A DNA stretch of 64,000 nt from Gemmatimonas sp. (GCA_965279375.1 OZ257156.1:2304001-2368000), one strand, 5' to 3'; counted from the stretch's first letter, positions 16,937-28,809 are shown. The notes: generated by a model not told the origin, from the sequence alone. A program made the numbers and translations.

Positions 16937-18865
16937 TTAACGCCCCGTGAACCAGGTCGACGGATTGAACCCCTGCGGATTCACTTCGTAGTACTGACTC
17001 CGCGTCCAGCGGCCCGTCGTCGGGAAATACGGCGGCGGATACTGCAGCAAGCAGCGGTTGAACGACAAGTCATCGTAGTAGCCATGCAGATTGCTGCCAC
17101 TCATCGTGCCCGTCTGTCCGGTGCGTGCTTCGATCGTGCCACCGATCAGTCGCGTGGTACCGCGCGTGACGTAGCGGTTGGCGGCCAGGCCTGCGGGCGG
17201 CGACGCATTCTCGGCAGCGACGGACTTGAGGGCCAGCAGCGATGCGTGGATCGCCATGTCCGGTCGATTCGCCGACGGATCGAAATCCTTGCGCGGCCAC
17301 GTCCAGGCGCTGCCGTCGTTGTTGGTGCGACGCCACTGCGGTGTCGCGAGCGTATTGTCGGCGTACATCACGTACTCGCCGGAGAACAAGCCGACAACGT
17401 CGTCGTCTGGGGTACACGCACCAGTGGTGACGCCAGGGCTCGTGGCCTGCGTGAGGTTGTGCGCGATGACGAGCATGTTCCGCGATGCAACGGTCACGCG
17501 ACCGCGTACGACACCGCTGACCGCGACCTTCCCTTCGGCGAAGATCACACCGCGAAAGTTCGGATTGTACGCGGCGCTGAGCGGCCACAGGTAGTCCGCA
17601 TCGGCCCGCGCCGCCAGCGAGGCGGGAATGCTGCCTGAGGTGCGCGGCATCCAGTAGCCACCGGAATCGGACGCGGCAAAGATACCCGTCGCGGTCAGGC
17701 GCTCATCTCCGCCCAAGTAGCAGCGCGTCGTGTTGTCATCGAAGGCATCGGCCTTGTCCTTCATCAGCGTCTGGTAGTTGCCGCTGGCGCGATGTGCAAT
17801 CGCTCGCATGGTGATGGGCACTGCACTGCGTCCACCGACATTGGTGACGCGACCGCAATTCGGCGAATACAGCACGCTGTCGATCGGTACGGCTGAACCG
17901 GTCGGCACCGGAGCGCCCGAGGCCGCCGTTGGCGGAATCGGCGGGCGCGCCATCGCCCAGCCGGCGCCCAACGGTGAGCCGGTCTTCGTCTGATAGACAC
18001 GGAAGTAGCCGTCATTCGGGCCCGTCGTGTTGCCGTCACCGTCGGCATCGATTGCGAGAAACTCGATACGCATCGTGGCCAGCGCCGAGTCGCCCGTGAC
18101 GACGTTGGGCGTGAAGACGTAGCCGGCCCGATTCGCGATGTTCTTGAGCACGTTCAGATCGGCCGTTGTCGGCATCGGGATCCTGGCGATCCGCTCCGTC
18201 GGCGGCCCCTTCTTGAACAGCGCAAACGTCTTGTTGGTGACGACAGCGGACGTGGTCACCACGTCATGGAAGGTGGCCTGCGGCGACGGTGTGCCGCCGT
18301 TCCAGACGTAAATCGTGTCGTTGCTGTGCACGGGCCCCTGCGCTTGCGCGCCGAGCGCCCAATACAGCAGCCAGCCCGCCGTCGATCGCGCCTGATCGGT
18401 GAACGACGCGTAGCGCGCAAACGACTCCTGGAACATCTGCGCGCGTCGAATGGCCGTGTTGCCGTAGCTGTCCGTCACCTGCGCCACCACCTCGGCCTGC
18501 ACGCCGAACTCACCCGCGTTGCGGAGCGAGTCGGAGTTGCCGAGACGCGAGACCCAGATCGAGCGGCGCAGACCGCCGCCGATGTTCACGTTGTTCGCGA
18601 CGGTGAGGTAGCCTTCCATCGGCACGGTATCGAGGCGCGCGTTCATGCGCGAGCGCTCGATCTCGAGTGAGGAGATCGCGGCGTCGTCGACGCTGGACGC
18701 GCGGTCGGATCCAGCCTGCACCAGCTTGCCGGACATCGCCATCACGGCCGACGCGAGTGCGATGACGGTCGCCACCATCGCGATCAGCAGTACCGCGACG
18801 AGCGCAAAGCCGCGACGGGTGCGAACGAGCTTTCGTCCCGGAAGCCTCATGCGTGTGGTCCTCAT
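16937..18865 (-). CDS. Large PilX/GspK-like minor pilin
   Basis: Class III signal RRG|FALVAVLLI lacking Glu5, typical of PilX/GspK; last gene of the four-pilin cluster; ATGA overlap with upstream gene. Confidence 0.75.
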   Translation of the reverse strand: MRTTRMRLPGRKLVRTRRGFALVAVLLIAMVATVIALASAVMAMSGKLVQAGSDRASSVDDAAISSLEIERSRMNARLDTVPMEGYLTVANNVNIGGGLRRSIWVSRLGNSDSLRNAGEFGVQAEVVAQVTDSYGNTAIRRAQMFQESFARYASFTDQARSTAGWLLYWALGAQAQGPVHSNDTIYVWNGGTPSPQATFHDVVTTSAVVTNKTFALFKKGPPTERIARIPMPTTADLNVLKNIANRAGYVFTPNVVTGDSALATMRIEFLAIDADGDGNTTGPNDGYFRVYQTKTGSPLGAGWAMARPPIPPTAASGAPVPTGSAVPIDSVLYSPNCGRVTNVGGRSAVPITMRAIAHRASGNYQTLMKDKADAFDDNTTRCYLGGDERLTATGIFAASDSGGYWMPRTSGSIPASLAARADADYLWPLSAAYNPNFRGVIFAEGKVAVSGVVRGRVTVASRNMLVIAHNLTQATSPGVTTGACTPDDDVVGLFSGEYVMYADNTLATPQWRRTNNDGSAWTWPRKDFDPSANRPDMAIHASLLALKSVAAENASPPAGLAANRYVTRGTTRLIGGTIEARTGQTGTMSGSNLHGYYDDLSFNRCLLQYPPPYFPTTGRWTRSQYYEVNPQGFNPSTWFTGR

Positions 18866-20055
18866 GGCACCACCACCGCGATCGAGGCCGCGAGCGTCGA
18901 GAGATTGGGTGTGCAGTCCTGCACGGCCAATCCGTACTGGTACGACTTCGCCGAGCCACGCTCGACGCCGCCGTCCTTGTAGTTGTAGGTCATCGTTCCT
19001 CCGACCACACCAATGGTGGCCAGCGGCTCACCCCACACCGCTGCGCCTGACAACCTGCGCCAGAGTACGTAGCGCACGGCATCGGTCTCGCCGCCGCCAT
19101 CGTCAGTGGCCTTGCTCCACGACAGCATCACTGCGTTGCTGTCGACGTTCCACGCGGCACTCGCCGCACCGGGCGCGATCGGTGGACGTCCGCAGGCGCG
19201 TGACTGGCGCGCGACCGCGGTATTCGGCATGGGGACGGTGTAGCGCACCACGTTGCGCGTGCCGGCGCTCGGCGTGGTCGCCTCGAAGGTGACCTCCACG
19301 CCGCGCAGCTGATCGATGCGCGTCGACGTGGCGGTGCCCGTGTCCGGCGTGACGCCCCGATACATGACGGACTTCGACAGCGGCAGCCAGCTGCGCGGTA
19401 CCGTGTCGAGATCGGTGAGCGTTGAGTTGTAGCGGGTCGGGTCGTACCAGTAGCGGAAGAACGGCGTCGATGGCGACTTGCGAAGTCCGGTTGCGATGAT
19501 CTCCGCGGTGCCGTTGTTCACCTGACGCAACAGCATGTAGTCCGCCGCGTCGGAGGACGATGTGTCGCGCGTGAATCGGAAGATGATCAGCTCTGCATCG
19601 CCGCTGGTGCCCGCGATGGTCGAATAGTCGGCCAGCGGGTACGTGAACGACGATCCGGGGATCGTGATCGCGTTCGAGAGCGAAATGGCGCTGACCTCTG
19701 CCGCGGTCGCATACGGATCGACGTACACGGCGCCGGTGAAGCGCGCCGAGTCGGCGTCGTTGCTCGTGAGGTCGCTGTTGAAGGCGAAGACGCTGTCGTT
19801 CGCGTACACCACGATGGGCTGATTGTCCATCACGTTCGTGCCGGCCGTGCGTAGCTCTTGGCGCATGATGTCGCGACCGAAGCGGCCGTTCTGAATCGAC
19901 GCGGACTTGGTGGCAAGCGTGCGGAATCCCTTGCCTTGCGCCAGCAGGAATCCGAATGCGGCGCTCATGATCAGCCCAAAGACGACCAGGGCGACCATGA
20001 CTTCCGCAAGCGTGAAGCCGCGTCGTGCGCGGCGGATCGATGTCGAAGGGGTCAT
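18862..20055 (-). CDS. PilW/GspJ-like minor pilin with C-terminal beta-sandwich (FN3-like) region
   Basis: RRG|FTLAEVMVAL; QELRTAG motif; ATG 20055 overlaps the upstream stop. Confidence 0.8.
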   Translation of the reverse strand: MTPSTSIRRARRGFTLAEVMVALVVFGLIMSAAFGFLLAQGKGFRTLATKSASIQNGRFGRDIMRQELRTAGTNVMDNQPIVVYANDSVFAFNSDLTSNDADSARFTGAVYVDPYATAAEVSAISLSNAITIPGSSFTYPLADYSTIAGTSGDAELIIFRFTRDTSSSDAADYMLLRQVNNGTAEIIATGLRKSPSTPFFRYWYDPTRYNSTLTDLDTVPRSWLPLSKSVMYRGVTPDTGTATSTRIDQLRGVEVTFEATTPSAGTRNVVRYTVPMPNTAVARQSRACGRPPIAPGAASAAWNVDSNAVMLSWSKATDDGGGETDAVRYVLWRRLSGAAVWGEPLATIGVVGGTMTYNYKDGGVERGSAKSYQYGLAVQDCTPNLSTLAASIAVVVP

Positions 20056-20453
20056 GGTGCGGCGATGGTGATGGTTCGACTGATCGGCGTCGGCAGATTC
20101 GTCGACACGACGGCCGACACCCGCACGGTGACCGTGGTGGTGTTCATGCCGCTGGTCGTGTCGCGGGTCACGGTGGTCTGGGATATCAGTCCGTTCGAAG
20201 TGCCGTTGAAGCGCACCTCGGTCAGCTGACCGATCGTGGAATACGTAGGCCAGGCCCGTGCTCGCCCGATCTGCATCTCGGCGACCGACTGCGCGCGGTT
20301 GCGGATGTCCGCATCGCTCACCGAGCGCGACATCGTTGTGGTGCCCATGCCCATGGCGAGAACCACACCGGCGAGAATCACCAGCGCGATCATCACCTCG
20401 ATCAACGTGAATCCGTCTCGGGAACCCGCGACGGCCGTACGAGAAGTGCTCAT
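20052..20453 (-). CDS. PilV/GspI-like minor pilin
   Basis: DG|FTLIEVMIALVIL; short (133 aa); ATGA overlap. Confidence 0.82.
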   Translation of the reverse strand: MSTSRTAVAGSRDGFTLIEVMIALVILAGVVLAMGMGTTTMSRSVSDADIRNRAQSVAEMQIGRARAWPTYSTIGQLTEVRFNGTSNGLISQTTVTRDTTSGMNTTTVTVRVSAVVSTNLPTPISRTITIAAP

Positions 20454-21040
20454 CGTCCATGCCTCCAGGCGCTGTTGGCCCACGCGTACCACTCTGGCCG
20501 AGCCGTGGCGCGCGCAATCACGACCGCACGGGTGTCGGCGTCGCTTCCGCCCGACATCGCCTTCGCGGTCGACAGGTAGAGCGTCACGGTGCGGTCCACG
20601 CTGCCGTTGCGTTGCAGCACCAGCATGGGCTTGCCGTTGCTGGTCAACATCGTCGGCATGCTGGCTGTCGCCGTACCCAGGGCGCCGACGGATGAGGGGC
20701 GACCGAACTTCACGCGCTCGGGCAGCGGAAAGGGGCGCGTACGTTCGCCGCTATCGAAGCGGCCGTTGTTGTTCGCGTCCCAGACGGTCTCGATGTTGTG
20801 GCCCGCGGTGTCGATCACGAACAGCACGTTGTGCTGTCGCGCAGCGGCGTCGCGCTGAGCCACCATCAAAGCCATACCGAATGTGCGAGCAGCGGCATCG
20901 ACCTGGGAATTGTCGACCCGCACTTTGGGCATCACTAACGCAGCGAGGATGCCGACAATCGTTATGGCGATCAGGAGTTCGATTAACGAGAAACCGAGCG
21001 CGGTTCTTCGTCGAATCGGGCGCGGTACTGTGACGGACAT
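20450..21040 (-). CDS. FimT/FimU/GspH-like minor pilin
   Basis: LG|FSLIELLIAITIVGILAALVMP; first gene of the cluster. Confidence 0.85.
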   Translation of the reverse strand: MSVTVPRPIRRRTALGFSLIELLIAITIVGILAALVMPKVRVDNSQVDAAARTFGMALMVAQRDAAARQHNVLFVIDTAGHNIETVWDANNNGRFDSGERTRPFPLPERVKFGRPSSVGALGTATASMPTMLTSNGKPMLVLQRNGSVDRTVTLYLSTAKAMSGGSDADTRAVVIARATARPEWYAWANSAWRHGR

Positions 21041-23637: not shown

Positions 23638-23746
23638 GGGTGAGTCTCGCCGGGACGCCGACTGGCGACAAGCGGTGAAACACTGACAGGCTCCATCAGC
23701 TTCGCTGCCGTGACGGAGAGCGCCGCCGCCTCGTATGTTGTGTGCC

Positions 23747-24805
23747 ATGTCTCTCGACCCGACCATCACCAGCGCCCTCGAACGCCGCGACGCGGATCGC
23801 TTCTGCACAGCGATCCTCCCCGCCGTGTCCCGTACGTTCGCGCTCGGCATCAAAGTGCTGCCGGGAGACCTGGGACAGGCCGTGCTCGACGCCTACCTGC
23901 TCTGCCGCATCGCCGATACAGTCGAGGACGCACCGGGGGTGGATCCGCAGGTGAAGGCCGTCATGTTCGACGACTTCCTGGCGGCGTTCGACGACCAGGC
24001 CGCGCTGACGCGCTTTCTGTCGGGCGTCGAGACGTTGCGTGGCGATCTCGCGCACATCACGCTCACGCGCAACACCGACCTCGTGCTCGAACACTTCGCC
24101 GCGCTGCCGAGCAAGACGCGCGATGTGGTTCGCAAGTGGGTGACCGAGATGGCCGTCGGCATGCGCAAGTTCGTGCTGCTCTACCCGGACGGCATTCGCA
24201 TCCAGACCATCGACGAGTACAAGGAGTACTGCTACTACGTCGCGGGCACCGTGGGGTACATGCTCACGGATCTGTGGCACGAGCATTCGTCGAGCATCGG
24301 GTCGCGCCGATACGAGGTGCTGCGCGAGCGGTGCCGCGCCTTCGCCGAAGCGCTGCAGACGGTCAACATCCTGAAAGACGTCGCCGTCGACGCGGAGAAG
24401 GAGAACTCGGTATACGTCCCCGAGGAGCTCTTGCGCATGCACGGCAGCACGCAGAGCCGCATTCTCGCGCCGGAGTTGGTCGCGAAGAACCGCGAAGCGC
24501 TCACGCAGCTCATCCAGCTCGCGTGGCACGATCTCGAGGAAGCACGCAACTATCTGTTGCTCATTCCGCGCCGCGCTGTCTCCATCCGACTCTTCTGTAT
24601 TCTGCCGCTGCTGCTTGCGTACGCCACGCTCCGCGATCTCGTGCAGAGCACGGCGATGCTCAAGCCCGGTGGGTCGGTCAAGATTTCACGCAAGGAAGTG
24701 AAGTCGCTGCTGATGACCGGCTCGATGCTCGTGATGAGCAACTGGGCCGTGCGCCGATTGGTCGAACGCGTGCGACTGCGCGCCTTCGAACTGGCGATCG
24801 CCTGA
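23747..24805 (+). CDS. Squalene/phytoene synthase family protein (squalene synthase-like)
   Basis: VSRTF, YLLCRIADTVED, YCYYVAGTVG, LQTVNILKD, VKISRK. Confidence 0.88.
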   Translation: MSLDPTITSALERRDADRFCTAILPAVSRTFALGIKVLPGDLGQAVLDAYLLCRIADTVEDAPGVDPQVKAVMFDDFLAAFDDQAALTRFLSGVETLRGDLAHITLTRNTDLVLEHFAALPSKTRDVVRKWVTEMAVGMRKFVLLYPDGIRIQTIDEYKEYCYYVAGTVGYMLTDLWHEHSSSIGSRRYEVLRERCRAFAEALQTVNILKDVAVDAEKENSVYVPEELLRMHGSTQSRILAPELVAKNREALTQLIQLAWHDLEEARNYLLLIPRRAVSIRLFCILPLLLAYATLRDLVQSTAMLKPGGSVKISRKEVKSLLMTGSMLVMSNWAVRRLVERVRLRAFELAIA

Positions 24806-24817
24806 CGGCACACGCGA

Positions 24818-24860
24818 CCTAACGCTTCGTCGCTGCGCTCAGCAGGGCGTTGGTCACCTG
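24818..24860. repeat. Direct repeat copy 1 (displaced 3' end of the 27958-28809 gene)
   Basis: cctaacgcttcgtcgctgcgctcagcagggcgttggtcacctg; 42/43 identical to 27957-27999. Confidence 0.95.
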
Positions 24861-24880
24861 AGCGGTGGTGCTCCCCGCCG

Positions 24881-25801
24881 CTACGAGCGCGGGAGTACCT
24901 GCGCCACCTCGACGACACGGAAGCCGCCATGGGTCTCGAACAGGTGACGGAGAATCGGCACATGCGACGATCCGACGATGATCACGATCCGGCGCTCGCC
25001 GAACGTCATCCACTTGAGGACCTTGCTGTACATCTGAACGTTTCGCCGGTACCAATCGGCCACGAGGTTGGCGCCGCTTGTGCTCACGCCCGAGGTGTCG
25101 CCGAGATCGGTGCGGATCTCTCCGATGCGGGCGAACCGGCTCAGATACACGCTATGGTCCGAGGCGAGTGAGGCCGGCGCATTCACCTGCTGGAGGTAGG
25201 CTGCGAGTGTCATCGAGTCGCGCGGGGCGTGCGGCGATGTACGCGCTTCGTAGTCGGCCCGGTAGCTAAACGGAGCTCGTCCCTCGAGCACATCCACTTG
25301 GCCATGGCTGCGCGCGTAGGACTCCATCGGAGCGTAGAGCGCACCATACAGGCCGGGGTGGTCCATCAAGTACACGCGCGGATGCCGCAGCTGAACCGCT
25401 GTGCGAATCCCGAGCTGATACACCTCATTCCGACGCCGCAACGGCCCCGTGGTTCGGTGCTGCTCAAGCAGTGAATCCGCCATCAGCTGGTTGAACTCGG
25501 GCTGCCACTCCACGAATAGCTTGTCCGGTTGCCAGCCCACGAGCGAAGCGACCACCGCGTCTACCTCGGCAGCGCGCCGTGACGTCAGCACATCGTAGGT
25601 CAGCGTGTCCGTCTGCGCGAAGTGAAACGTGCCAACGAGCAGCACCTCGATCGGATGCGATTCGCGTAGGGCCGCCGCAACGAGCGGCGCTGGCACGAGC
25701 GGTGGCCCGGATCGGCAGGAGGCCAGGCCGAGCAGCAGGCCAACGCCTGCTCGGCAGAGACGCGAGTGGAACCGCGGGTTCGGGACGGCTCGTCGGCTCA
25801 T
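24881..25801 (-). CDS. DUF5694-like putative lipoprotein
   Basis: LASC lipobox; LLVGTFHF, KLFVEW, NEVYQLG, WYRRN, RIVIIVGSSHVPIL. Confidence 0.72.
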   Translation of the reverse strand: MSRRAVPNPRFHSRLCRAGVGLLLGLASCRSGPPLVPAPLVAAALRESHPIEVLLVGTFHFAQTDTLTYDVLTSRRAAEVDAVVASLVGWQPDKLFVEWQPEFNQLMADSLLEQHRTTGPLRRRNEVYQLGIRTAVQLRHPRVYLMDHPGLYGALYAPMESYARSHGQVDVLEGRAPFSYRADYEARTSPHAPRDSMTLAAYLQQVNAPASLASDHSVYLSRFARIGEIRTDLGDTSGVSTSGANLVADWYRRNVQMYSKVLKWMTFGERRIVIIVGSSHVPILRHLFETHGGFRVVEVAQVLPRS

Positions 25802-25825
25802 GGTGATGACCTCAGGGTAGGGGTA

Positions 25826-25877
25826 TGCTAAATTTCCAGCACTGCTGGATTTCTAGCATTGTGCTATCTTTTTAGCA
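25826..25877. promoter_or_regulatory. Three tandem TGCTA-N6-TAGCA-type boxes (probable BlaI-family operator)
   Basis: TGCTAaatttcCAGCA (25826-41), TGCTGgatttcTAGCA (25843-58), TGCTAtcttttTAGCA (25862-77), in the divergent intergenic region. Confidence 0.8.
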
Positions 25878-25916
25878 ATACTGGTGAAGCGCCCACCCGC
25901 CCAGCACTCTTTGCCA

Positions 25917-26308
25917 TGCCCCCGCGCCAGCTCGCTGACTCGCTCTCACGTCGAGAGAAGCAGATCATGGACATCCTCTTCCGCCGCGGCGAGGGCACCG
26001 TGACCGACGTGCGCGCCGAGCTTCCCGACCCGCCCTCCTACTCCGCCGTGCGCGCGCAGCTGCGGATCCTGGAGGAGAAGGGGCACGTCACGCACCACGA
26101 AGACGGGCCGCGTTTCGTTTTCACGCCAACCGTACGCCGCGACGACGAGCGTGTGCGCGCTCTCGAGCATCTCGTCACCACCTTCTTCGAAGGCTCGCGC
26201 GAGGCGCTGGTGAACGCGCTCATCTCCGACGGCGACACGCGCCTCGACGACGATGAGCTGCGCCGCCTCGCATCGCTCGTCGCCAAGGCGCGCAGAGACG
26301 GCAGATAG
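25917..26308 (+). CDS. BlaI/MecI/CopY family transcriptional repressor
   Basis: LSRREKQIMDIL, PSYSAVRAQLRILEEKG, LVTTFFEGS, ELRRLASLV. Confidence 0.92.
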
Positions 26309-26310
26309 TC

Positions 26311-27828
26311 ATGAAGGCGTCGCTGATTCTGGCAGCGTGGCCGCTGCTCTACGGTGTTGCGGCGCGTGTCACGATACTCGTCCTCGCAGCGCTGCTGGCG
26401 GATCGCGTCCTGCGTCGCCGTAGCGCATGGCTACGACACGGCATTTGGCGGGCGACGCTCTGGGGAACGATCGCCCTTGGCATCGGCGCTGTAGTGCTGC
26501 CGAGCTGGCACGTGGCACTGCTCCCGCAGCGACCGCCGCAGCTTCTGGCGCAGGTGATGCCAACCGAGGCGCTGCGAACGCGCCCGGAAGCGCTGTCCGC
26601 CAATCCGCAGTCTCGTGAAATCGGCGACGGCAACGCCGCAAACGCTGCGCAGGCGATTCCGATCGCCGCCGGTATCGTGGCCATCTGGCTGATCGTGCTC
26701 GGCGTTCTGTTGCTGCGCATGCTGCTGGGCCGTATCGCGCTCGGCCGCGCCGTACGCCCGGCACACCAGTTACGCGAAGGTCCGGTTGCTCATCTCACGG
26801 CTCAGCTCGCGCATGAGCTTGGAGTCTTTCGGCCGGTTCGGGTTTTACTCCATGAGACTGCGGTGGTCCCGTACACCTTCGGCGTTTGGCAGTCGACGTT
26901 GGTGCTTCCCATCGATGCCGCGCATTGGCATCGAGACCGATTGGAGCGAGTCATCACTCATGAGCTGGGCCATGTTCGGCGCGCTGACGCGTTCGAGTGC
27001 GTTCTTGTTCGCTTTGTGACGGCGTTCCTTTGGTTCCACCCCGGAGTCTGGCTGCTCTCGCGTCGACTCGCGGCCCTGCGAGAGGCCGCCTGCGACGACA
27101 TCGTCCTGCTGCGCGGTGCTCGCGCATCCGACTATGCGGCAGACCTGCTTCACGCCGTACGCAGTGCACGGGCGCTGCGGCCACCTGAGGCAGTACTCGC
27201 GATGGCCAGTCGTTCGGAACTTGGCACGCGCCTCTCGGACATTCTCGATGCGTCGCGCCCACGCCGGATCGACGCACGCGCCACGCGTCGGTTGATGGGA
27301 GCGGCCTGCGTGCTGCTTGCCATGCCGCTGGCTGCGCTGTCCCCCTCGCGTCGGCAGAGCTCCAGCCAACTCGCAATGCGCGCGCAGACCACGTCCGCCG
27401 AGCGGCGTGCGATGCCACGCACACGTGCAGCGTCGCCGTCGCCAGCGCGCGGTGCAGAACGAACTGTGGCAAAGCGCCCGAGTGCACGACGACGTGTGCG
27501 CTTGTCATCACCAACGCATTCCGCGCTCGTAGCCGCGCGTCTCGCGTCGCTCGACAGCATCTGCGCCATCACCAATGGACGGACGCGAGGTGAACGGCTG
27601 GTGGCACTCGCCGACCATTGGATTGAGGATGCGCGATTCTTGGAGGCGTTCTTCCGCGTGCTCGATGGCATTCCTGGCGCCCGCGTCCGCGCAGAGGTCG
27701 TCGTGCACGCGCTCACGGCATCTCGCACGTCAGAGACGAGGAGCCACGCGCGCGCAATCATCGACGGGCTGCCGGACCGCGGGCTTCGCGAGGCCATGTT
27801 CGATCGCCTGAGCGCGATGGATCTCTAA
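26311..27828 (+). CDS. M56 family (BlaR1-like) membrane metallopeptidase with non-canonical C-terminus
   Basis: TM helices, HELGH zinc motif, WFHPGVW, REAACDD, YAADLL; 2 nt after blaI. Confidence 0.88.
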   Translation: MKASLILAAWPLLYGVAARVTILVLAALLADRVLRRRSAWLRHGIWRATLWGTIALGIGAVVLPSWHVALLPQRPPQLLAQVMPTEALRTRPEALSANPQSREIGDGNAANAAQAIPIAAGIVAIWLIVLGVLLLRMLLGRIALGRAVRPAHQLREGPVAHLTAQLAHELGVFRPVRVLLHETAVVPYTFGVWQSTLVLPIDAAHWHRDRLERVITHELGHVRRADAFECVLVRFVTAFLWFHPGVWLLSRRLAALREAACDDIVLLRGARASDYAADLLHAVRSARALRPPEAVLAMASRSELGTRLSDILDASRPRRIDARATRRLMGAACVLLAMPLAALSPSRRQSSSQLAMRAQTTSAERRAMPRTRAASPSPARGAERTVAKRPSARRRVRLSSPTHSALVAARLASLDSICAITNGRTRGERLVALADHWIEDARFLEAFFRVLDGIPGARVRAEVVVHALTASRTSETRSHARAIIDGLPDRGLREAMFDRLSAMDL

Positions 27829-27956
27829 GCAGACCTCTGGCCGTAAAGATGTCGTCACACGGGCCACAACTGCTACTCGCACATTGGTCGGTCCGACGCG
27901 CAGTTCCTGCTGGGGCGCTTCTGTGTAGGAATGCGGTGAGCAGTGCGCGTCGTGCG

Positions 27957-27999
27957 CCTAACGCTTGGTCGCTGCGCTCAGCAGGGCGTTGGTCACCTG
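27957..27999. repeat. Direct repeat copy 2 (current 3' end of the 27958-28809 gene)
   Basis: cctaacgcttggtcgctgcgctcagcagggcgttggtcacctg, encoding QVTNALLSAATKR-stop on the minus strand. Confidence 0.95.
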
Positions 28000-28809
28000 G
28001 CCAATCACCGACGGTGGCGGCTGCATCGCACCTTGCTCGAGATCATCGAGCAGCTGATCCACGCGCAGCTGCACCCGCGCGACCGTGCGCTTGAACGATC
28101 CCTTGATGGCGCGCCACAAGCCGTAGCCACCGGCGACCTGAACGACGGCGAGTGCCCCAATCGCCGCAGTGAATCCGCCCGGATTCGCCGAGTTCGAGGC
28201 GATCACCGTGAGCACCGTCGACAGCACCCCGAACGTCACCGCATTGACGCCTACGACAACGGCCAGTGCAGCGTTCCGCTGCGCGCGACGCACACCGCTC
28301 AACTCGACATCGAAACGCACCACGGACTTTGCGTCGTCAACCGGCGTCACCGTCGCGATGAGTTGGTCGACGCGCACGAGATCAAATCGGCGACCGCCTG
28401 TGCCGAGCGCGCGCAGCGCATTTCCGATCGGATCGTGACGAGGCTCCCAGCTCGTGCGCTGAGGCATCCGTCTGCGGACGGCCAGCCCTTCCATTCGCGG
28501 GAGCCACGCGTCGATTCGCGCCTGGACGTCACTCGCACTTCCCGGAACCACTCGCTGTGCGCCTACGATCGCCGACCCCAGTGCGTCGAGAATCGGGCCG
28601 CCGCCAGGCGCGTCAAACGCCACACGCGCCCGCTCTTCCGCCAGCGCCTGCTTGAGATGCGACGCGTCGATACCCACCTCGCGTGCGACCTCGAGCAAGC
28701 GAGACTCCGAGAGCGCCTCTGTCGCGTCGCCCGTCGTTCCCTGCAACTCGGTCGCACGCGCGAGCACGCGTTCGAGCGCGTCGCGCGGAATCGAGGGTTC
28801 GTCAGCCAT
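27958..28809 (-). CDS. Hypothetical membrane protein (2 TM)
   Basis: N-terminal ERVLARATELQ...LLEVAREVGID helical domain; two C-terminal TM segments; start overlaps the upstream stop. Confidence 0.75.
   Translation of the reverse strand: MADEPSIPRDALERVLARATELQGTTGDATEALSESRLLEVAREVGIDASHLKQALAEERARVAFDAPGGGPILDALGSAIVGAQRVVPGSASDVQARIDAWLPRMEGLAVRRRMPQRTSWEPRHDPIGNALRALGTGGRRFDLVRVDQLIATVTPVDDAKSVVRFDVELSGVRRAQRNAALAVVVGVNAVTFGVLSTVLTVIASNSANPGGFTAAIGALAVVQVAGGYGLWRAIKGSFKRTVARVQLRVDQLLDDLEQGAMQPPPSVIGQVTNALLSAATKR

Follow-up and report, generated by a model that had tools for sequence, protein, structure and literature searches.

In this study, we analysed a window of 64,000 nucleotides from the genome of a Gemmatimonas sp. 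(GCA_965279375.1 OZ257156.1:2304001-2368000) and found that a block of three genes, located within positions 24818-27999 of the window, is an insertion that duplicated the 3′ end of the protein-coding gene next to it. The block encodes a DUF5694 protein, a BlaI/MecI/CopY-family repressor and an M56 membrane metalloprotease, and the locus is a real integrase-free islet of a structural kind already described, with new cargo. As to its origin, the explanation that we favour, to which we give about an even chance, is that the block entered by a single host-recombination crossover at the tail of the gene and now moves between sister species.

A three-gene block bounded by a duplicated gene end

The features that define the insertion are as follows.
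24818-24860, minus strand: repeat copy A, a detached duplicate of the target gene's final 13 codons, stop and 1 base; Thr codon ACG
27957-27999, minus strand: repeat copy B, the target gene's working 3′ end; Thr codon ACC; GTTAGG end, then C
27958-28809, minus strand: target gene, 283 amino acids, without a Pfam or NCBIfam family, present in 82 of 86 congeners
23735-24805, plus strand: squalene/phytoene synthase (SQS) family gene in the left flank, PF00494

Sequence comparison bore out the direct repeats described by the earlier, sequence-only reading of the window: 24818-24860 and 27957-27999 are identical at 42 of 43 positions, where about 3e-9 such pairs would be expected by chance. The minus-strand translation of each copy is QVTNALLSAATKR*, which corresponds, as claimed, to the last 13 codons and the stop of the target gene, and the sole difference is synonymous (Thr codon ACG or ACC). 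A search of both strands of the closed 5.31-Mb genome (one contig) that allowed up to 12 mismatches found no third copy. Copy A lies 13 bp from the SQS stop; when the 3139-bp unit was taken out in silico, 13 bp remained between the stop of the target gene and that of the SQS gene, in agreement with the spacing of about 13 bp that had been put forward. A genome-wide scan of gene ends revealed nine duplications within 120 kb downstream, the 43-bp pair flanking the cargo being the longest; the others span 18-37 bp and, by eye, resemble paralogues or chance matches. The 43-bp pair is the genome's only non-paralogous gene-end duplication of such size found in the scan.

The congener genomes used for comparison comprised one per species, and the empty sites come from other species. 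Matches to both the SQS gene and the target gene were obtained in 80 of the 87 genus genomes, one match per gene being kept in each (partial second matches in G008, G014 and G061 were dropped), and the two genes lay on separate contigs in five. With the source genome (G000) excluded, 74 congeners carried both genes on the same contig, and in 68 of these the gap between them was no more than 300 bp; at the empty site the two genes are convergent. In G062, the target gene ends QVANALLGAATKR* only 5 bp from the SQS stop, and this empty-site layout indicates that the repeat is the target gene's native tail. The Thr codon of G062 is ACC, as in copy B; the single mismatch is uninformative on which copy came in. 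The tail varies widely between species, and a duplicated gene end occurred only in G000 when the genomes with any DNA match (20 of 87) were compared. A sliding comparison of identity with eight congeners revealed no clear mosaic in the target gene of G000. Because the site is empty in 68 of the 74 congeners, the three-gene block is an insertion, and the claim of an insertion at a gene's 3′ end thus stands.

The six congeners with wide gaps carry other DNA between the two genes: an insertion sequence in G041, one hydrolase-like gene in G008, a pilin-like cluster in G013 and G055, and non-coding repeats in G005 and G100. The pilin-like cluster of G013 and G055 corresponds to one located upstream in the window, at 16937-21040, and this intergenic spot has thus received several unrelated inserts. 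No exact direct repeat of at least 16 bp was found at the G041 locus.

The junctions were also considered at the level of the assembly. The contigs of the probable source run are interrupted at a 32-bp core over which the two copies are identical, and the contig graph by itself would permit an empty site plus a separate circle. However, the core has a depth of 20, about double, compared with 7.7, 10.7 and 13.9 on three neighbours, depths that are not independent of the assembly, which is consistent with two real copies. The single base that distinguishes the copies sits on separate contigs, the genome is one closed contig, and sample X6, from a different study, has the repeat at both ends of the cargo. 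The contigs give no sign of an artefact, and the chance that misassembly explains the duplication is practically negligible.

The cargo is predicted to form an inducible switch

Between the two repeat copies lie the following features.
24881-25801, minus strand: DUF5694 protein, 306 amino acids, PF18950 (E=1e-31)
25826-25877, no strand assigned: palindromes TGCTR-N6-YAGCA, three in tandem and 16 bp each, within the divergent promoter; to judge from their sequence, likely operators for BlaI
25916-26308, plus strand: BlaI/MecI/CopY-family repressor, 130 amino acids, PF03965 (E=4e-24)
26311-27828, plus strand: M56 (BlaR1-type) membrane metalloprotease, 505 amino acids, PF05569 (E=3e-29), HELGH at 217
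27829-27956, no strand assigned: non-coding cargo end, 128 bp, free of attC and unmatched in the rest of the genome

Pfam searches of the cargo genes found DUF5694, Penicillinase_R and Peptidase_M56 and no recombinase or mobile-element gene, which confirms the earlier statement that a recombinase is lacking. Outside the three genes and their promoter, the cargo holds only 20 and 128 bp of DNA. Its GC content (65.7%) matches that of the flanks (66.2-66.3%). The excess of T-ending codons ascribed to the cargo proved true of the M56 gene (T at four-fold sites 0.150, 96th percentile of 2716 genes) but not of the DUF5694 and BlaI genes (43rd and 45th percentiles).

A Penicillinase_R gene followed by an M56 gene with HExxH constitutes a BlaI-M56 module, and by analogy we predict that the cargo is a self-contained inducible switch. 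BlaI bound to the three palindromes would repress its own operon and the divergent DUF5694 gene, and the M56 protease would, upon a signal, inactivate BlaI and so lift the repression. The palindromes between the divergent genes, which we infer to be likely BlaI binding sites, are the one place where the genome's 27 exact sites cluster, and all three are retained in G050. The repressor scores under the NCBIfam cut-offs for BlaI and CopY, and the curated cut-offs for BlaR1 and BlaI were reached only to 73.8 of 400 and 23.8 of 180 bits, respectively; scores so far below the cut-offs indicate that the cargo is not a bla locus. A bla/mec resistance locus would combine scores above the curated cut-offs with a beta-lactamase or penicillin-binding protein as output, a combination absent here. 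Pfam detected no penicillin-binding sensor domain in the M56 protein and no further domain in its C-terminal 200 amino acids. The DUF5694 protein has a hydrophobic N-terminus that ends in Cys and looks lipoprotein-like by eye; it has no sequence match in the PDB, an atlas lead pointed to TraB/PrgY/GumN at 0.78 only, and a literature search found no paper mentioning DUF5694.

The same module was found once more in the genus. DUF5694 was matched in 4 of 86 congeners, at full length and closely only in G050 (59% identity), and G050 was also the only congener matched by M56 at E<=1e-40. There, an identical three-gene layout lies about 90 kb from the empty SQS site and is followed by ABC-transporter-like genes, indicating that the module is a unit found at more than one locus. 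The M56 protein of G050 is 33% identical to that of G000, compared with 82% for SQS; the cargo genes thus diverge faster than SQS between species. Beyond the genus, relatives of DUF5694 occurred at five distant loci in genome contigs (23-41% identity, Bacteroidota titles), none was confirmed in metagenome or viral contigs, and 19 other proteins, four of them at 79-85%, came without genomic context. The 400 genomes of the order gave two distant DUF5694 matches, and the cargo DNA gave, among the matches listed from these genomes, short ones lying nearly all over BlaI (best E 1e-36). The exact repeat had no match in JGI metagenome contigs. Another BlaI-M56 module, at 5.10 Mb of G000, is bracketed by a repeat pair 3194 bp apart that belongs to a dispersed family of 150-240 bp (G000:C1:205056, 244704, 2703447, 4699269, 5100841).

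Host recombination as the favoured route of entry and exchange

Under the favoured explanation, circular DNA or a fragment carrying the module and a stretch of the gene end would recombine into the tail of the target gene, and the crossover would leave the target gene intact plus the spare copy A, which may have been longer and later trimmed. The block would then pass between sister species through DNA uptake and homologous recombination, with copy A offering a short stretch of anchoring homology at one end and the target gene a long one at the other, and recombination between the repeats could remove it. In favour of this explanation, the site is empty in most congeners, the tail is native in G062, and the locus has the structure of an insertion with long target duplication (see below); a ComEC-family gene is also present in G000.

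Three runs of mixed communities from two other studies (X5, X6 and X7) bear on the exchange; identities are relative to G000, among the contigs listed. Three further runs (X8-X10) had small shares only, and no RNA dataset figured among those listed. In X5, the cargo contigs are 95.6-98.2% identical (four pieces), compared with 89.1 and 89.4% for the SQS pieces. In X6, four of the five cargo pieces are at 95.3-97.4% and the fifth at 87.2%, with SQS at 86.7% and the upstream gene at 81%; all coverage at the listed SQS positions of this sample differs from G000. In X7, two of the three cargo pieces are at 96.4-98.5% and the third at 86.1%, with SQS at 87.0 and 93.6%. That the cargo is more alike than SQS, although it diverges faster, points to recent horizontal exchange. 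In addition, the X5 target gene is 97.2% identical beside the cargo and 90.8% further up, as expected of a recombination tract. In X6, a single contig spans M56 through copy B, and the contigs over copy A show a different 9-base outer flank and a 3-base insertion just inside the cargo; the repeat is thus present at both cargo ends. Taken together, these sequence data make recent exchange of the cargo between sister species likely.

Several observations weigh against this explanation. No contig among those listed joins the cargo to divergent SQS alleles, X6 and X7 also hold cargo pieces at 86-87%, and the pieces at 95-98% could stem from a patchily assembled close strain. The excised circle and the empty-site joint, which the sequence-only reading had suggested might be recovered, did not appear among the listed records of four runs, and the cargo depth in the probable source run (10.7) is not raised. 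A 43-bp repeat is short for RecA. The repeat extends a single base beyond the stop, an end point also found in integrase elements that restore a gene, and the explanation leaves the GTTAGRY end of the repeat and the likeness of copy A to integron boxes as coincidence. Restriction-modification genes, the defining cargo of the class of insertions described by Furuta and colleagues, are absent. A sliding comparison of identity with eight congeners revealed no clear mosaic in the target gene of G000.

Integrative elements and transposases

The geometry of the repeats fits attL and attR sites that restore the end of a target gene, and the sequence-only reading took the locus for an attL/attR scar. 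In the corresponding scenario, a tyrosine-integrase element with a 43-bp attP core would have inserted, lost its integrase and kept attL and attR, leaving a cis-mobilizable element (CIME), which is defined by the loss of integration genes and the retention of both att sites (PMC5704250). The repeat covers exactly the gene's tail through the stop, and one classical integrase element is present in the genome: an island of 75 kb (G000:C1:4274283-4349673), marked by a 35-bp repeat, whose tyrosine recombinase lies next to tRNA-Thr(CGT) in a tRNA cluster. On the other hand, neither an integrase among the open reading frames of the six wide-gap congeners nor a cognate integrase-bearing element at the target gene end in any of the 74 same-contig congeners was seen (the wide-gap reading frames being judged by eye). 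The cargo contains no relic of mobility genes, a tail that varies so widely would serve poorly as a fixed target, the 43-mer does not resemble the att of the tRNA island (local score 5 at most), and no viral contig encodes a DUF5694 relative. The four tyrosine recombinases of G000, none within 1 Mb of the site, comprise two that we take to be XerC- and XerD-like, the one beside the 75-kb tRNA-Thr island and an integron integrase; no serine recombinase was found in this genome. The evidence therefore does not establish the repeats as the product of a site-specific integrase, and we regard a decayed integrative element as rather unlikely.

A transposase that makes long target duplications could have moved the block in trans. 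The repeat is near-perfect and unique in the genome, and IS1630-type transposons with 19-26-bp duplications exist (PMC2853133). However, the unit has no terminal inverted repeats (the best candidate, a 9/10 match, is offset from its ends), no DDE_Tnp_1 match was found in G000 (other transposase families were not searched), and the genome scan revealed no second islet of such form. This scenario is very improbable.

Elsewhere in the genome, a perfect 57-bp hairpin-like direct repeat surrounds one aldehyde-dehydrogenase-like gene (G000:C1:651431-653307). The hairpin has scattered matches in five close congeners, which lack a strong match to that gene, suggesting that it is probably a repetitive extragenic palindromic (REP)-like sequence.

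The integron integrase of the host as a candidate agent

According to the sequence-only reading, the element was either decayed or mobilised in trans; the large integron of the genome and the GTTAGRY end of the repeat add a third possibility. The integron integrase (IntI) of G000 matches TIGR02249 with 383.9 bits (cut-off 265), and such an integrase is over the cut-off in 58 of the 87 genus genomes. The chromosomal integron (G000:C1:1245979-1396000) comprises an intact IntI and, downstream of it, some 120 attC sites, each about 110 bp in length. Its cassettes have terminal inverted repeats of 10-13 bp, several are present in multiple copies, and the attCs erode at the tail of the array. The IntI gene (G000:C1:1245979-1247300) lies upstream of the array on the same strand, whereas in the usual integron layout the integrase is divergent from the cassette array. 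At E<1e-3, 121 attC hits fell within the array region (1.25-1.40 Mb) and eight outside it, singly or in small clusters (G000:C1:109649, 316902, 318315, 673929, 904839, 911715, 923736, 3705123); these eight are obvious candidates for the insertion of cassettes into genome sites. Weaker attC remnants lie near 2289095, 2925159 and 3703112.

In this scenario, IntI inserted the module as a cassette at the G/TT of the Arg-stop (an attG-type site, at which TTAG restores the stop), and the 37 bp upstream of G/TT later replaced an attC or act as a makeshift one. The integrase is present in the host, and a preprint on attG sites reports that IntI inserts cassettes at GWT genome sites, with imprecise excision (10.1101/2022.09.11.507474). 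The junctions read GTTAGGC or GTTAGGT, the commonest cassette starts (20 and 16 of 95, together 36 of 95), and just 13 of 2716 genes end in GTTAGRY, a motif noticed after the fact. Copy A scores 7.2 bits on an R''-spacer-L'' matrix, in the top 0.15% of 2635 gene ends, its minus-strand fold begins at the first base of the repeat, and a reverse-oriented BlaI-M56 pair sits inside an array cassette at 1.357-1.360 Mb.

Against this, attC sites were sought without success within and around the cargo and at 16 homologue loci. Array cassettes carry an end repeat of 10-13 bp that the cargo lacks, and R'' and the cassette start are not complementary. A true attC half scores about 30 bits against the 7.2 of copy A, and 14% of 300 gene ends equalled the alignment likeness of the repeat to 33 attCs. 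The hairpin lacks significance (z of -0.87 and -1.38 for copy A, and about 0 for copy B), and the 25 bases that separate AAC from GTT leave too little room for the geometry of an attC. The two outlying cassettes with placed starts (of 12 candidates) keep their attC and show no flank duplication, and the word 'duplication' is absent from the preprint (10.1101/2022.09.11.507474). GTTAG is also simply Arg-stop and is present in congeners with an empty site. The repeat itself was considered as an attC relic and rejected, the tail being native coding sequence. On balance, insertion of the module by IntI is a live minority reading that we also regard as rather unlikely.

A more specific version, in which IntI uses the 3′ end of a protein gene as a stand-in attC, excising and re-inserting an attC-less module in sister species and regenerating the duplication each time, strikes us as a long shot. 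If true, a stand-in attC would be a natural route to make and spread cassettes outside integrons. To our knowledge, there is no settled answer as to how cassettes arise from DNA that has no pre-made attC, and a role of IntI here would bear on this question. With a length of 3.1 kb and a single marker base that tells its repeats apart, the unit lends itself to an easy assay. A literature search on secondary sites of integron integrases with target duplication and cassettes found no paper combining all of these, and the literature on Gemmatimonas and integrons held, among the matches listed, resistome and community surveys only.

Comparison with known systems

The inducible layout of the cargo recalls that of blaZ and blaR1-blaI. 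In both, a repressor and an M56 protease stand opposite a divergent gene with palindromes between them; here, however, neither protein reaches the BlaI or BlaR1 cut-off, the output gene encodes DUF5694 rather than a beta-lactamase, and no penicillin-binding sensor domain was detected.

As regards mobility, the islet shares with the CIMEs two att-like repeats, a preserved gene end and the lack of integration genes (PMC5704250); unlike them, it has no parent integrase element found at the target. With attG cassettes and single attC sites lacking integron integrases (SALINs), it shares a host IntI, outlying attCs and a G/TTAGRY junction, and the SALIN-type start G/TTRRRY is present as GTTAGGC at copy B; however, it lacks an attC and the cassette end repeat, and that route is not reported to duplicate its target (10.1101/2022.09.11.507474). 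The H47 genomic island of Escherichia coli is reported to be one that excises and integrates through direct repeats without an integrase, mainly as judged by PCR, and excision for a 46-bp repeat pair was reported (PMC3191183, PMC5426353). Both are small, lack a recombinase and have direct repeats; H47 moves by host functions, but it is 13 kb with repeats of about 148 bp at 77% identity, and its mobility was tested by PCR, whereas ours is judged from sequence.

In structure, the islet most closely resembles insertion with long target duplication, defined as an insert below 20 kb that has a repeat of more than 30 bp and lacks other mobile elements, and found chiefly in bacteria that are naturally competent (Furuta, Abe and Kobayashi 2010, PMC2853133). 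The Haemophilus influenzae cases have unique repeats of 44 and 46 bp overlapping gene 3′ ends (PMC2853133). In the same way, our insert is short (3139 bp) and has no mobility gene, a unique and near-identical direct repeat in the 43-47-bp range (43 bp here, single at the empty site) overlaps a gene 3′ end, relatives have an empty site, and the host has a competence gene. The empty sites, however, come here from other species rather than other strains, and the cargo is BlaI/M56/DUF5694 without the restriction-modification genes that served as a screening criterion, so that the nuclease-break idea of that work is not applicable here (PMC2853133). The locus therefore has the structure of an insertion with long target duplication but is no restriction-modification case. 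It adds a regulatory cargo to a described class whose mechanism stays unsettled, and it hints at a recent transfer of that cargo from species to species at a single site, which is useful rather than surprising.

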